Below, in pieces: positions 12,547 to 62,549 of a stretch of DNA of 64,000 nucleotides; positions within the stretch are counted from its first letter, which is position 1; each line of letters starts with the position of its first letter. Source of the stretch: an uncultured Gammaproteobacteria bacterium (GTDB lineage: Bacteria; Patescibacteriota; Microgenomatia; Daviesbacterales; UBA10151); contig CAZKCV010000001.1 of the NCBI GenBank assembly GCA_964551605.1, forward strand, positions 61,992 to 125,991, written 5' to 3'. The translations under genes were made by a program, and so were the position numbers. The notes beneath the pieces were generated by a model. That model was not told where the DNA came from and did no database searches. It saw only the letters and a program-made list of their open reading frames with translations.

Positions 12547-13319
12547 AAAGCGTCAAGGGGAAAGCGTCAAGGGGAAAGGTAATAATTTTAACTATACTAT
12601 TATTATTTTTAATTCTTCACCCTTCACCCTTCACCCTTCACCCTATTTTAGCTGCCGAAGGCAGCCCATCAGCCGAGATCAAATCCAAACTCGAGGAGCT
12701 AAAGAGAGATATTGCCTCAAAGGCCGCTAAATTAAAACAAGAGGTAAACCGCAAACTAAAAGATAAAGCTTATGTCGGAACTATTCAGGCCAAGTCAGAT
12801 ACTTCCTTAACCCTGGCAACTGCATCCGGCCCGAAAATGGTCAGTTTTAATGAGGATACAATTTTTGAAAACAAGAAAGGAGTCACCTCCAAAACTCAAA
12901 GATCCATAGTCACTGCCAAATCTCTAACCCAGGATGACTATATTGCCGCTTTAGGAGACAGCGATGAAACAGGGGTGCTGCTGACCAGAAAAATTATATT
13001 ACTGCCAACTCCGGACTCTGAACTCAAAACTTATTTATGGGGCCAGGTAGTCTCGCGTTCAGATAATTTGGTGAATATAAAAGATAAGGGTTCCGAAAAC
13101 ATTGCTGCCAGCTTGCCTGAACCCCCTAAGATCAGCTTAAATGACATTGTGATATTAACCGGCAGTAAAAATGAAGAGGAAATCTTTGAAGCAGAATTTG
13201 TTCATGTCATTCCCCAAAGCGGAATGATTAAGCCAAAAAAAATTGCTACTCCCTCTGCCAGAATCGCCAGTCCCTCTGCTGAGCAAAGCTCGCGGACTTC
13301 GCCCACTAAACCCCGTTAG
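12543..13319 (+). CDS. hypothetical secreted protein with tandem-repeat-encoded N-terminus
   Basis: Signal-peptide-like N-terminus. The DNA carries (aaagcgtcaagggg)x2 at 12547-12574 and (caccctt)x4 at 12618-12645 inside the 5' end of the CDS. Confidence 0.4.
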   Translation: MKSVKGKASRGKVIILTILLLFLILHPSPFTLHPILAAEGSPSAEIKSKLEELKRDIASKAAKLKQEVNRKLKDKAYVGTIQAKSDTSLTLATASGPKMVSFNEDTIFENKKGVTSKTQRSIVTAKSLTQDDYIAALGDSDETGVLLTRKIILLPTPDSELKTYLWGQVVSRSDNLVNIKDKGSENIAASLPEPPKISLNDIVILTGSKNEEEIFEAEFVHVIPQSGMIKPKKIATPSARIASPSAEQSSRTSPTKPR

Positions 13320-14023
13320 CTAAAATCTTCTTTGCCATTGGTTAAAAATTCCTCTGCCTCTGATTTATCTTTGACAACGTCAACAGCCCGCCAAAATCCT
13401 TCATCCTTAAACCCCAAAAATTTCTCCTTGGGGATTTTGGGAAAGGTTTCCTTTTCATGATCCCCCTTCTCAGGCAAAAGAGGCTCAACATCTTTGTTAA
13501 AAAGATAAATTCCCCCGTTTATCCAATAAGGCAGTTTGGGTTTTTCTTCAAAACCGGTAATATGGTCGTCTTCGTCAACCTTTACCACACCCCATCTGGA
13601 AATATAAGGCACCAGGAGCAGGCTGACTAAGGCTTGCTGATCCAGATGTTTTTTGATCATGTCAGATAGATTTAATTTGGTGATAATGTCACCGTTACAA
13701 ACCACCACATCTGTTTCACCGATAATAAGAGGGCTCTGAAAAGCTTTCTTGATTCCCCCACCCCTACCTAAAGGGGTTTCTTCAATGGAATAATCAACTT
13801 CTATTCCGAATTTTGAGCCGTCCCCGAAATATTCCTGAACAACGTGATACATATAACTGACTGTTAAAACAAATTTGGTAATTCCGTGGGATTTAAGCCA
13901 TTCTATCTGCCAGGCTAAAATGGGCTTGCCGTTAATTTCCACCATCACCTTGGGCCTGTCATTGGTGTAAGGCCGGAGCCTCTCCCCCTTCCCCCCTGCC
14001 AAAATTATTGCCGTCTTAACCAT
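13316..14023 (-). CDS. sugar-phosphate nucleotidyltransferase (NTP_transferase family)
   Basis: MVKTAIILAGGKGERLRPYTNDRPKVMVEINGKPIL has the G-x-G-x-R-L motif. Start moved to the ATG at 14023. Confidence 0.75.
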   Translation of the reverse strand: MVKTAIILAGGKGERLRPYTNDRPKVMVEINGKPILAWQIEWLKSHGITKFVLTVSYMYHVVQEYFGDGSKFGIEVDYSIEETPLGRGGGIKKAFQSPLIIGETDVVVCNGDIITKLNLSDMIKKHLDQQALVSLLLVPYISRWGVVKVDEDDHITGFEEKPKLPYWINGGIYLFNKDVEPLLPEKGDHEKETFPKIPKEKFLGFKDEGFWRAVDVVKDKSEAEEFLTNGKEDFS

Positions 14024-14109
14024 AAGTAGATATATACCATAAACAAAAATTCTGAAAAAGTCCAGCATTTTAGTTTGCAAATAGAAGGTCCTGAGACTAA
14101 AATTCCTAT

Positions 14110-59736: not shown

Positions 59737-61014
59737 TTGATGAACAATGTCTCAGTCATAGTCGGAACTCAATGGGGAGATGAAGGCAAAGGCAAGATTG
59801 TTGACCTCCTTGCGGAAGAAAAAGACTATGTTGTCCGTTTTCAGGGCGGAAATAATGCCGGCCACACTATTGTTGTCAACAATAAAAAATATCCCCTACA
59901 TTTAATTCCCTCCGGTGTTTTACATCCTAAAACAAATTGTGTAATAGCGAACGGCGTAGTTGTTGATTTAGAGGTTTTAATTTCTGAAATAGAAATGTTT
60001 ACCGGTGACGGCATTAAATTAGATGGCAGGTTGTTTATTTCTGACAGGTGTCATCTGATTCTGCCTTACCATAAAGCATTGGATATAGCTTATGAAAATG
60101 CCAGGGGAAAAGGAAAATTAGGTACCACTGCCAGGGGTATTGGGCCGGCTTATGCAGATAAAGTCAGCTATAACGGAATTAGAATTTATGAACTAAAAAA
60201 CTGGGATTTATTTGCGGAAAAATTTGTCTTTCAGGCGGAAATGAAAAATAAGATTCTGGAAACTTTTGATGTTCCTCCCTTAAATACGGAAAGGGAGCTG
60301 GAAAGATTAAATGAGCTTAGAAAAAAAGTATTACCTTTTATTACGGATACTTACCAGGTTTTACAGAGAGCTATTTCAGATAAGAAAAAAATCCTTATGG
60401 AAGGCGCCCAGGCAGTCATGCTGGATGTTGATTTTTCACCATATCCTTTTTCTACCGGGTCTAACACTGTTCCCGGTGCAGTAAATACCGGCGCCGGAAT
60501 ACCGATACAAAAAATTGGGGATATCTTAGGTGTAGTAAAAGCCTATACCTCAAGAGTCGGAGGCGGCCCGTTCCCTACTGAATTAACAGATCAGTTGGGT
60601 AATGATCTCAGGGAAAAAGGCGGCGAATATGGTACCACTACCGGCCGGCCCAGAAGAGTCGGCTGGCTGGATTTGGAGGCAGTTAATTTTGCTTGCGAAG
60701 TCTCAGGAGTAACAGAAGTTACCATTACTAAGATAGATATATTATCCGGAATGGATAAAATTAAAGTCTGTACCGGTTACGAATTAAACGGAAAGACAAT
60801 TCACTATAGCAGCTGCGGGTATCTGGAGCTGGAAAAACTTACACCTGTATATAAAGAATTACCCGGCTGGACAGAAGATATAACTAAAGTTAAATCCTTC
60901 AAAGATTTACCCAAAAGTTGCCGGGATTATGTTAAATTTATAGAGGACTTCTTAGGAGTCCCGATTAAACTCATTTCCACAGGCCCCAAAAGAGAAGAAT
61001 ATATCAAGCTTTAG
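59737..61014 (+). CDS. purA: adenylosuccinate synthetase
   Basis: [17 protein letters not shown]-loop, [19 protein letters not shown]. Confidence 0.9.
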
Positions 61015-61016
61015 GC

Positions 61017-62549
61017 TTATTCCCACTCCATAGTGGCTGGGGGTTTGTTGGTAATGTCGTAAACTACCCTGTTAACTTCTTTTACCTCATTTACAATTCT
61101 GGTTGATATTTTTTCCAAAACATCATATGGCAACTTGGCAAAATTGGCAGACATGGCATCAGTTGCTTCAATAGCCCTAATTGCAATGGTCTCTCCATAA
61201 AACCGCTGGTCACCTCTTACTCCGGTGGTTTTAATGCCGGTAAAGACTGCAAAGAATTGCCAGAGTTTTTTATCTAATCCGGCTTTTTCAATTTCTTCCA
61301 GGACAATTTTATCCGCTCTTCTTAAGATGCTTAATTTTTCTTCCGTTACCTCACCTATAATTCTAACTGCAAGGGCCGGGCCGGGAAAAGGCTGCCGGGC
61401 TATAATCTCATCAGGCAATCCTAAGATGCTGCCAATTTTCCTGACTTCATCTTTATAGAAATTTCGCAGTGGTTCAACCAGCACTAAATTCATATCTTCC
61501 GGGAGTCCTCCGACATTATGATGTGATTTTATCTTCTGTGAATGTTTGCTGCCGGCAGACTCTATCACATCCGGATAAATGGTTCCCTGCACCAAAAATT
61601 TGGCATTAATTTTTTTTGCTTCTTTCTCAAACACTTCTATAAAAGTTTTACCGATTACTTTTCTCTTTTCCTCCGGGTCCACAACTCCTTTTAAGGCTTT
61701 CAAAAAATCTTGTCTGGCATCGACAATATCCACATTCATTTTGTATTTGTTTCGGAAAACTTCCCGCAAAGTTTCTGTCTCACCTTCACGCATTAACCCG
61801 GAGTCAACATAAACAGAAGTTAAATTTTTGCCAATAGCTTTGTGTACCAACAATGCGGCCACTGAGGAATCTACTCCGCCGGACAGGGCACATACAGCTT
61901 TTTCATTCCCTACAGAATCCTTGATATCTTTGATAAGATTTTCTACAAACGCGTTGTTAATTTCCTGTTTCGTAATTTCAATACCACAAATCTCTAAAAA
62001 GTTTTTTAAAAGCTGCTCACCAAACTCGGTATGTACCACTTCCGGATGAAATTGAATACCAAAAAGTTTTTTATTTTTATTTTCAATAATGGCATGTGGG
62101 ATTGTTTCAGTTTTACCTAAAGTTTCAAATCCTTCCGGAATTTTTATTACCTGATCTCCATGACTCATCCATGCAGTAAATTTTTCTGGAATATCTTTCA
62201 ACAACTGTACCCTGTACCCTGTACCCTGTACCCTAACTTCTGCTGGTCCGTATTCTCTTTTTCGTCCGGCTACCACTTCTCCTTCTAACAAATGACACAT
62301 CAATTGTTGTCCGTAACAAATTCCTAAAACCGGAATTCCTAACTTAAATATTTCCGGATCTATTGTAGGTGACTCTTTTTCAAAAACAGCCGCCGGCCCG
62401 CCTGATAAAATTATTCCCTGTGGTTTTACTTCGCTAACCTTCTGCATGGCAGATTCCGGAATGGTAATTACCACATCGGATCCCAATTCTCGGAGTCTCC
62501 TGAATATCAGATGTGTTGTTTGTGACCCAAAATCAATTAATAAAATCAT
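61017..62549 (-). CDS. guaA: GMP synthase (glutamine-hydrolysing)
   Basis: GATase domain GICYGQQLM. PP-loop SGGVDSSV. Contains (gtaccct)x4 at 62207-62234 encoding VRVQGTGYRVQ. Convergent with purA, 2-bp gap. Confidence 0.9.
   Translation of the reverse strand: MILLIDFGSQTTHLIFRRLRELGSDVVITIPESAMQKVSEVKPQGIILSGGPAAVFEKESPTIDPEIFKLGIPVLGICYGQQLMCHLLEGEVVAGRKREYGPAEVRVQGTGYRVQLLKDIPEKFTAWMSHGDQVIKIPEGFETLGKTETIPHAIIENKNKKLFGIQFHPEVVHTEFGEQLLKNFLEICGIEITKQEINNAFVENLIKDIKDSVGNEKAVCALSGGVDSSVAALLVHKAIGKNLTSVYVDSGLMREGETETLREVFRNKYKMNVDIVDARQDFLKALKGVVDPEEKRKVIGKTFIEVFEKEAKKINAKFLVQGTIYPDVIESAGSKHSQKIKSHHNVGGLPEDMNLVLVEPLRNFYKDEVRKIGSILGLPDEIIARQPFPGPALAVRIIGEVTEEKLSILRRADKIVLEEIEKAGLDKKLWQFFAVFTGIKTTGVRGDQRFYGETIAIRAIEATDAMSANFAKLPYDVLEKISTRIVNEVKEVNRVVYDITNKPPATMEWE

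Follow-up and report, generated by a model that had tools for sequence, protein, structure and literature searches.

Tandem heptanucleotide arrays in and between genes of a Candidatus Daviesbacteria genome and their probable turnover by strand slippage

Why should a single bacterial genome carry many short tandem tracts of nearly the same length, built from different 7- or 14-nt units and lying both between its genes and inside genes for conserved enzymes? This question is raised by a 64,000-nt stretch of contig CAZKCV010000001.1 (assembly GCA_964551605.1, positions 61,992 to 125,991; hereafter the window). The GuaA, release factor 1 (RF1) and secreted-protein products of the window all had their best matches in Candidatus Daviesbacteria, which belongs to the Microgenomates group of the candidate phyla radiation (CPR, or Patescibacteria). 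CPR bacteria are uncultured and their mutational processes are almost unknown, and the tracts offer a readable footprint of such processes. Our analysis indicates that they are probably a lineage-wide kind of heptanucleotide microsatellite that turns over through strand slippage and is filtered by reading frame and structural tolerance. In our view they chiefly reflect how the DNA of this lineage mutates and were not selected as switches. Judging from the sequences compared here, in which other loci are designated by L numbers, the repeat class appears to pervade Daviesbacteria and other Microgenomates-type CPR lineages.

Tandem Repeats Finder and a direct reading of the window recovered all nine tracts listed in a preliminary description of this DNA. 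The gene names given there also held: prfA has PCRF and RF-1 domains, guaA encodes GMP synthase, and the prmC candidate is a methyltransferase gene overlapping the end of prfA. The near-constant tract length stood as well, but its value is 29–32 nt (four units plus a partial unit of 1–4 nt) and not 28 nt as had been stated. The list itself was incomplete, with about as many arrays again having been missed, mostly AGTTNNN/AACTNNN and TAACTGA-like arrays, several of which are arranged as inverted pairs. Six tracts are perfect (12547–12578, 12615–12644, 19024–19054 when read as a 14-mer, 27141–27169, 28427–28455, and 62205–62234), and all six are 29–32 nt long, comprising four heptamers or two 14-mers and a partial unit of 1–4 nt. 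Further period-7 arrays were located at 44–73, 310–345, 381–414, 1216–1250, 3566–3637, 11269–11387, 18397–18416, 19064–19109, and 24677–24711. We counted 20 arrays in the window, of which 11 lay in the 7.4% of the DNA that is non-coding and nine lay inside genes. The arrays were thus enriched about 15-fold in the non-coding part of the window, and they occupied approximately 8% of it.

To define a period-7 tract, at least 18 of 21 self-matches at offset 7 were required, and 100 third-order Markov shuffles of the window served as the null. The window contained eight tracts at offset 7 and four at offset 14, whereas none appeared at either offset in the 100 shuffles, and the proposed enrichment of periods 7 and 14 was thereby confirmed. 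Every other offset from 2 to 24 gave zero or one tract in the window. The sole tract of this size class with a different period is a period-16 tandem duplication, (TTATGATTAGAATAAA)x2.4, at 34462–34499 (33–38 nt), in the spacer upstream of a subtilase-like gene. As controls, we used 80 guaA loci of unrelated non-CPR bacteria, retrieved by scanning genome contigs with universally conserved GuaA peptides, and only two period-7 tracts were found in these 1.34 Mb. The tracts are real, and the statistical support for them is overwhelming.

Slippage was seen most directly at the guaA tract. In the window, guaA (61017–62549, minus strand) contains (CTGTACC)x4.3 with 100% matches at 62205–62234. Its sense strand reads GTT (AGGGTAC)4 AG TTG; the encoded segment, RVQGTGYRVQ, lies in a loop of the glutamine amidotransferase domain. 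In Daviesbacteria GuaA orthologues with 70–94% protein identity, four units occupy the same codons in the same phase, and the unit sequence varies: AGGGTAC in L087, AGATCAA in L086, AGAATCA in L091, AGTTCAA in L094 and L096, AGGCAAC in L083, and AGGTTAC/AGGCAAC in ABAB order in L085. In the closest relative, L170, the array is the imperfect AGGATAC AGGCAAC AGGCCAC AGGCCAC; it is 70% identical to that of the window, whereas the flanks are 93–95% identical, so the array has diverged faster than the DNA around it. The orthologues with no array are three residues shorter at this site. At guaA loci of approximately 53% identity, four A-rich heptamers occupy the same loop (one locus is labelled Levybacteria and two only “Patescibacteria group”), and in another group, including one locus labelled Roizmanbacteria, the array sits in a second loop. 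None of the 80 control genomes had an array at the guaA site.

The guaA tract of L087 has the same sequence as that of the window, and its in-frame, four-unit protein form was recorded on 24 contigs. The 90% cluster of this protein also holds two proteins of 379 residues whose first residue is the Met of WMSHGD. At the nucleotide level, L172 and L173, which come from two different ENA assemblies, carry (AGGGTAC)3 in place of the (AGGGTAC)4 of L087, and the loss of 7 nt splits guaA into open reading frames (ORFs) of 112 and 379 residues (positions 2633–4140 in L172 and 1507–3014 in L173). There were no other differences between L173 and L087 over 4,696 nt, and L172 differed from L173 by five substitutions. 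The suggestion that the tracts are slipped-strand hot spots is therefore borne out by the four-unit in-frame and three-unit frameshift alleles of this strain type. Because the three-unit allele occurs in two independent assemblies of a near-identical strain, it provides direct support for slippage in nature at the guaA tract, and it demonstrates that GMP synthase can be inactivated in natural Daviesbacterium populations. A single 7-nt step can thus knock out a biosynthetic gene, and in metagenome-assembled genomes such tracts split gene calls and give the appearance of pseudogenes; they are also usable as strain-level markers. After these alleles were found, we dropped the constant four-unit length as an argument against slippage, as out-of-frame alleles escape protein searches. 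One member of the GuaA cluster, with 517 residues, was considered as an allele with three additional units, but it merely reflects another start-codon call. When all the fetched CPR loci were scanned for arrays in which the gain or loss of one unit rejoins split ORFs, the only clear cases were L172 and L173, and L167 14149–14172 was ambiguous. Another ambiguous site is (TTACGAG)x2.4 at 581–597 of L121, a candidate frameshift allele in which two open frames, each ≥ 95 codons long, would be fused by one additional unit.

The arrays also evolve in concert. At the guaA site, the identity between units averaged 0.82 within one array and 0.50 between positionally orthologous units of different genomes, from which concerted evolution follows. 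Single substitutions were found in all copies of an array: a C-to-T change in both copies of the 14-mer of L168, and a C-to-A change in all four units of the prmC array of L169. These observations support the earlier proposal of an active sequence-generating process at the DNA level, as opposed to selection at the protein level. Arrays with two unit variants were mostly ABAB (prfA of the window and guaA of L085, L129, L135, and L153), although AABB, ABBA, and ABAA patterns were also seen, and the prevalence of ABAB suggests exchange in a 14-nt register. The “14-mers” are either such two-variant ABAB heptamer arrays or 14-nt duplications. The position and length of the arrays are conserved across the GuaA, RF1, and secreted-protein orthologues, and most of the tracts are older than the split between the compared genomes, not recent insertions.

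The other tracts inside genes show the same features. In prfA (18883–19818, plus strand), the tract at 19024–19054 consists of (CAGTCAT CAGTCGT)x2 plus CAG, an ABAB array that is perfect as a 14-mer x2.2, and encodes 10 residues in a variable linker of RF1. This segment recurs as QSS[VA][VFI]S[RH]QSS within a subclade. The array is (CAGTCGT)x4 in L169 and is broken by a small hairpin insertion in L167. The same linker contains a degenerate period-7 stretch at 19064–19109, with TCTGACAGCTG at 19068 and 19099, which encodes a 15-residue segment conserved in the subclade. In the prmC-like methyltransferase gene (19787–20500, plus strand), the tract at 19918–19948 is imperfect (CTGTAAC CTGTACC CTGAAAC CTGTAAC CTG, x4.4, 83% matches). 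L167 has nearly the same imperfect array, L169 has CTGTAAA-type units at all four positions, with the last base changed as described above, and L171 has no array and is three codons shorter in this region. The preliminary description held that such tracts are tolerated in-frame in essential genes. They are indeed present in-frame, but their sites are confined to variable loops, linkers, and a signal peptide, and guaA can be lost in some populations.

The secreted-protein gene (12543–13319, plus strand), orthologues of which are named DUF5666 by one source, encodes a signal-peptide-like N-terminus and contains two tracts with 100% matches. The first, (AAAGCGTCAAGGGG)x2.3 at 12547–12578, covers codons 2–12 and encodes KSVKGKASRGK; this pair of 14-mers is kept in many orthologues, conserved as MKSVKGKALRGK, and in L168 it is AAAGCGTTAAGGGG x2.3, which carries the C-to-T change in both copies. 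The second, (CTTCACC)x4.3 at 12615–12644, encodes LHPSPFTLHP in the c-region of the signal peptide. Nearly all of the 59 orthologues have a 10-residue, 7-periodic peptide at this place (for example, LHPSPFTLHP, LYPIPYTLYP, LRTTNYELRT, or INHQSLFINH), and the underlying units include CTATACC in L167, ACGAACT in L166, and CTGNNNC in L171. No off-frame allele was found among the 59 orthologues, in protein searches that are biased against off alleles. Phase variation of this protein, which had been put forward as a candidate, is possible, but the gene does not stand out in this respect.

Most arrays lie between genes, 2–53 nt upstream of start codons, in a compact genome with short spacers throughout. 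Between purH and purB, an ATTAGAA/ATTAAAA array (56009–56039, x4.4, 91% matches) fills the 39-nt spacer and ends 7 nt upstream of the purB ATG. It is absent in L087, L089, L093, L100, and the closest relative L170, in which the flanks are 95% identical. In L083 and L118, a different array lies just inside purB and adds exactly seven residues (+21 nt), and in L086 and L094 a palindromic element takes the place of the array at this junction. The array in the rpsF–ssb spacer (TTAGAAA/TTAAAAA, 25571–25600, x4.3, 95% matches), 6 nt upstream of the ssb ATG, shares its unit family and its tail with the purH–purB array and is absent in L169 and L171. A perfect (CTAATTC)x4.1 array (28427–28455) lies 8 nt upstream of the ychF start, and the perfect 14-nt duplication (TTTTTGGGAAATAT)x2.1 (27141–27169) is intergenic. 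A CTTTACC-type array (44–73, x4.3, 73% matches) overlaps the stop codon of an rluD-like gene (53–811, minus strand).

The AGTT-type arrays combine a constant 4-nt core with three variable positions and are found facing either way with respect to the gene downstream. Those in the window comprise an inverted pair of AGTTNNN (310–345) and AACTNNN (381–414) arrays, which forms an in-frame insertion of about 23 residues in a pseudouridine synthase gene; an AACTNNN array (1216–1250) upstream of a response-regulator gene; inverted AGTTNNN/AACTNNN arrays (3566–3637) in the divergent spacer between lgt and a hypothetical gene; and an AGTTNNN array (24677–24711) in the spacer downstream of rpsR. Upstream of dnaB, a palindromic pair of TTCNGTT and AACTGAN (TAACTGA-like) arrays (11269–11387) fills the spacer and ends 2 nt from the ATG. 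The architecture of the dnaB-spacer array is conserved in L167, whose lgt spacer has the same inverted architecture as 3566–3637 but is built from CAGTCAT-type units. The inverted AGTT/AACT arrays fold well (z = −4 to −5); for individual hairpins of inverted pairs, z was −5.1 (3566–3637), −4.0 (11269–11387), and −1.9 (310–414). Direct arrays are unstructured as RNA (0 to −3 kcal/mol), except for the guaA tract, in which the self-complementary GUAC allows a fold of −10 kcal/mol (z = −3.4). A role of the direct arrays in RNA structure was consequently dropped. The absence of structure in direct arrays and the occurrence of AGTT-type arrays in both orientations point to a phenomenon at the DNA level. 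An Rfam search of the window gave no match at the arrays, only a tRNA at 9822–9905.

Some intergenic arrays may nevertheless matter for expression, because the array GACTCTT GACTCTC GACTCT (2.9 units, 18397–18416), just upstream of rpmE, overlaps a promoter-like site (TCGACT-17-TATACT) and is identical in L167; it is absent in L171. Shine-Dalgarno-like motifs were equally rare before genes preceded by arrays (2 of 9) and before other genes (14 of 58), and we rejected a special shortage at the former. In the window as a whole, such motifs precede only 16 of 67 genes. In addition, −10-like boxes (TATACT, TATAAA, or TACACT) were found just 5–8 nt upstream of the ATG at 18402–18444 and at the starts of the genes at 815–1198, 23994–24659, and 25954–27087. 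The proximity of these boxes to the ATG, together with the rarity of Shine-Dalgarno-like motifs, suggests that leaderless mRNAs or mRNAs with very short leaders may be frequent.

We next consider how the arrays could arise and persist. As the guaA alleles show, an array of about four units gains or loses units when it slips out of register by 7 or 14 nt while DNA is being replicated or repaired. The loss of a unit followed by re-duplication of its neighbour, or repair of misaligned pairing, would overwrite one unit with another; the pattern of such overwriting is visible in the arrays, and either route would keep an array internally uniform while its unit drifts. Within genes, only copy numbers that keep the frame (1, 4, or 7 units, four being 1 + 3) would last, and arrays would be tolerated only where 10 arbitrary residues are harmless, such as the GuaA loop, the RF1 linker, the signal-peptide c-region, and N-termini. 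Most arrays do accumulate in the small non-coding part of the DNA, immediately upstream of genes, and the occasional reversible knock-out of genes such as guaA would be a side effect. The tracts would then be the footprint of a strong, period-specific process of slippage or homogenisation that places arbitrary 10-residue segments in conserved enzymes.

The length distribution and the dispersal of the arrays weigh against this reading in several respects. In 0.89 Mb of CPR DNA, perfect period-7 tracts were either 14–21 nt long, which is background, or 29–33 nt long (n = 10, plus one of 38 nt), and none had 22–28 nt. Perfect period-14 tracts in this DNA were 29–36 nt long (n = 7), and the controls had none. 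Array length was 25–38 nt throughout, and two-unit heptamer repeats were at the background level, with no excess. Gradual slippage predicts many two- and three-unit arrays and leaves unexplained the gap between the two-unit background and the class of about 30 nt. Given this gap and the lack of a two-unit excess, new arrays seem to appear near full size, and simple stepwise slippage is insufficient. Arrays between genes also have about four units (13 arrays outside long ORFs measured 25–33 nt), for which frame selection cannot account. In guaA and prmC, the genes bearing arrays are only three codons longer than array-free orthologues, and not seven. Furthermore, prfA is presumably essential, and frameshifted intermediates should be lethal, so that a length-neutral conversion route must be assumed. 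Units at unrelated loci of the window were alike beyond chance (10 pairs with ≤ 1 mismatch versus 2.5 expected from shuffled units of the window, P about 0.001), and the block AATTTYT x4 followed by AA[A/T]CAA occurs at 25571, at 56009, and at a non-orthologous site in L167. These likenesses are better explained by copying between loci than by independent local slippage.

The last observations lend themselves to an alternative that we regard as unlikely but tenable, namely that the tracts are very small mobile or copy-pasted elements, blocks of about 30–40 nt inserted ready-made through template switching or a transposition-like process, with slippage and homogenisation acting only afterwards. 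The length gap, the absence of perfect three-unit arrays, the background level of two-unit repeats, the similar size of intergenic arrays, the unit families, and the AATTTYT block at three non-orthologous sites all agree with this idea. So do the absence of both window copies of that block from the closest relative, despite the 95% identical purH–purB flanks, and the occurrence of CAGTCRT arrays in prfA, in the rpmE–prfA spacer of L169, and in the lgt spacer of L167. However, the junctions between filled and empty sites that we examined had no terminal signature, target-site duplication, or associated enzyme; many units are private (for example, CTAATTC, AGAATCA, and AAAGTGC); the AT-rich block common to these sites has low complexity and may have arisen by convergence; and orthologous arrays keep their position and phase across genomes, so most copies were inherited. 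More speculatively, Microgenomates CPR bacteria may possess a lineage-specific DNA transaction that writes four-heptamer blocks of about 30 nt in one step and then rewrites them, the tracts serving as genome-wide reversible frameshift switches that stochastically toggle housekeeping and biosynthetic genes such as guaA in host-dependent cells; we give this proposal little credence. The one-step writing could stem from a peculiar kind of template switching when DNA is replicated or repaired, or from a copying activity that has so far escaped notice. Footprints of transposon excision, telomerase-like addition, activity of diversity-generating retroelements or retrons, and remnants of clustered regularly interspaced short palindromic repeats were rejected, as their anatomy does not fit and the window has no associated genes. 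The probability of chance or an assembly artefact is close to nil. Metagenome assemblers can mis-handle repeats, a caution of a general kind, but no shuffle reached the observed counts, the tracts are much shorter than both the reads and the assembly k-mers (final k 141), they keep essential reading frames open, and the same arrays recur in independent NCBI, JGI, ENA, and Logan assemblies. On the same grounds, we rejected a k-mer artefact as the origin of the length of about 30 nt.

The remaining alternatives assign the arrays a function. They could be selected cis-regulatory elements, either sites for a repeat-recognising protein that binds RNA or DNA, or elements that set promoter spacing or form leaders, the coding copies being spill-over. 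A cis-regulatory role has been proposed for the TAACTGA repeats of Beggiatoaceae (PMC4679880) and for heptamer repeats of Nostoc (bioRxiv 10.1101/2022.06.06.494920). Every intergenic array in our data lies within 2–53 nt of a start codon, more than half of the arrays fall in the small non-coding fraction, the GACTCT array overlaps a promoter-like site that is unchanged in L167, the AGTT-type core is constant, and the inverted arrays fold, with L167 preserving their architecture although its units differ. We nevertheless judge this explanation to be rather improbable: with spacers so short, any content is near a start codon; Shine-Dalgarno-like motifs are no rarer behind arrays; the orientation to the downstream gene is inconsistent; the units vary from site to site and yield no single binding motif; close relatives with the same operons lack the arrays at 56009 and 25571; and the arrays within guaA, prfA, and prmC are left unexplained. 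The arrays might instead be adaptive contingency loci, kept because one-unit on/off switching is useful, with the secreted-protein gene and guaA as candidates. Phase variation through heptanucleotide repeats has precedents (NeuO and HMW1A), a 7-nt unit is not divisible by three, tracts lie at the 5′ end of the secreted-protein gene, and the natural three-unit off allele of guaA is the consensus in two assemblies. This appears very doubtful, because the same tracts occur in RF1, PrmC, GuaA, PurB, RluD, and many spacers, with no enrichment of surface or host-interaction genes. Moreover, they have just four units, whereas classical contingency tracts are longer and variable in copy number. The length of the secreted-protein tract was invariant in its 59 orthologues (the bias of protein searches against off alleles applies here also), and the scan for rejoined ORFs gave no clear case besides L172 and L173. 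Turnover by slippage under the filter of frame and structure therefore remains the reading we prefer. If it is true that some tracts are switches or regulatory sites, they would provide a first handle on gene regulation in the CPR group.

Compared with known systems, the arrays represent a form, specific to this lineage, of a repeat class already described and not a new system. The features that distinguish them are the near-fixed size of about 30 nt, the conserved sites inside conserved enzymes, and demonstrable concerted evolution. A literature search found no description of such heptamer repeats in CPR bacteria. Heptanucleotide phase variation is exemplified by NeuO of E. coli K1, with a heptamer repeat at the 5′ end of the coding region, and by HMW1A of Haemophilus influenzae, with heptamer repeats in the promoter. 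As in the guaA off allele, the 7-nt unit lies in or before a gene, and the gain or loss of a single unit changes the frame or the promoter; however, the tracts of NeuO and HMW1A are long, polymorphic in copy number, and associated with surface or virulence genes, whereas those described here have four units, are mostly invariant, and lie in housekeeping genes and spacers. The small dispersed repeats (21–27 nt) of Nostoc punctiforme, reportedly described by Elhai et al. in 2008, a study cited in PMC3116915, are similar in that blocks of < 40 nt are found at new sites between close relatives; in our case, small hairpin insertions also occur within the heptamer arrays of relatives. Those repeats are unique-sequence elements, whereas our arrays are internally tandem and their mobility is putative. 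Canonical heptamer units of cyanobacteria are CCCCAGT, TTGGTCA, and CAACAGT; these were not encountered here, the window units being CTTCACC, CTGTACC, CAGTCRT, CTAATTC, TTAGAAA, and AGTTNNN. The window is likewise free of GGGGAYT units and of G-quadruplex potential. In Borgs, repeat units within genes have lengths divisible by three, whereas in our arrays, with a unit of 7 nt, the frame is kept only by copy number. Borg tandem repeats, as portrayed in PMC9879509, are perfect, fast-evolving, present at many sites including ORFs, where they add disordered peptide segments, and organized in longer repeat regions; fast evolution, perfect tandem repetition, and partial location in ORFs are shared with our arrays.

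Among the bacterial repeats with 7-nt units, an excess of heptamer simple sequence repeats, mainly intergenic, was reported for many bacteria in a 2007 survey (Mrazek, Guo and Shah 2007, as summarised in PMC4692102), and that summary tentatively ascribes it to the duplex of about 7 bp held by the replicative polymerase, which would favour slippage. The specific enrichment of 7-nt units over neighbouring sizes and the mainly intergenic location are common to both cases, but here the arrays have a near-fixed number of about four units (29–33 nt), often lie at conserved sites in housekeeping genes, and evolve in concert. They thus form a natural system for asking why 7-nt units are favoured in bacteria, a question that has stood since that survey. 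In the cyanobacteria Calothrix and Nostoc/Anabaena, many tandem heptamers, known as STRR, are present, often in three or four copies near start codons or promoters (PMC4692102; bioRxiv 10.1101/2022.06.06.494920), and the GGGAATC repeats of Xanthomonas lie between the same genes in related species and vary in sequence and length (PMC4692102). Our arrays resemble the former in having many different units per genome in three or four contiguous copies, and the latter in that the place is conserved and the sequence is not; however, both were described as intergenic, whereas 9 of our 20 arrays are coding and the taxon is unrelated. TAACTGA repeats (MacGregor 2015, PMC4679880) are found in 2–6 copies a few nucleotides upstream of start codons, including those of ribosomal-protein operons, in Beggiatoaceae, Cyanobacteria, and Bacteroidetes, and some overlap stop codons or sit in ORFs at protein termini. 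The arrays before dnaB, ssb, purB, and ychF match this position in very short spacers, and there are arrays in the rpsF–ssb–rpsR operon, but the unit itself is matched only by the AACTGAN units at 11333–11387. Our arrays have many unit families and internal sites in conserved enzymes, and no candidate array-binding protein was identified.

Other small elements were noted beside the arrays. Insertions of 15–27 nt break heptamer arrays in frame in guaA of L081/L096, L083, L149, and L159 and in prfA of L167, and three of them have a clear hairpin with a TTCG loop (for example, CTGCCTTCGGCAG and CCAACCTTCGGTTGG). A similar CCACCACCTTCGGTGGTG hairpin lies in the EamA–rpmE spacer of the window (18327–18362). 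These small hairpin insertions may be template-switch products or tiny mobile hairpins. At junctions and loops where other genomes have heptamer arrays, some relatives carry palindromic elements (GTCATCCYGAGC...GGATC...GATTC...AATGAC) that resemble repetitive extragenic palindromes or miniature inverted-repeat transposable elements. They were found in L086 and L094 (purH–purB), L168 (dnaB and lgt spacers), and L111 and L120 (inside guaA), and those inside genes translate to motifs such as CHPEQREGS or DSRFRGNDK. In the window, a 36-nt dispersed repeat (CCACCCTAGGGGTGAAC.TAGGTTG.CACCCCAGGA, 81–94% identical) occurs in intergenic DNA at 6070–6105, 14667–14702, and 27204–27239. Its core is a CACCCTAGGGGTG hairpin, with four matches versus 0.04 expected. 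A related 27-nt palindrome, ACGTTTACACCCTTGGGGTGTAAACGT, is located in frame in the prmC-like gene (20005–20031), and the closest relative is without it.

Two further observations concern gene content. A full cluster for de novo purine synthesis, syntenic in L081, L083, and L170, occupies approximately 52000–64000 of the window and comprises purF, purD/N, purL, purQ, guaA, purA, purH, purB, purE, purC, prs, and two DUF1246/DUF1297 ATP-grasp genes. Full de novo purine synthesis is unusual in CPR bacteria, which are generally thought to be nucleotide scavengers. Finally, dnaB of the closest relative (L171 987–3818, 943 residues) contains an intein with a LAGLIDADG domain, and dnaB of the window (9908–11266, 452 residues) is intein-free.

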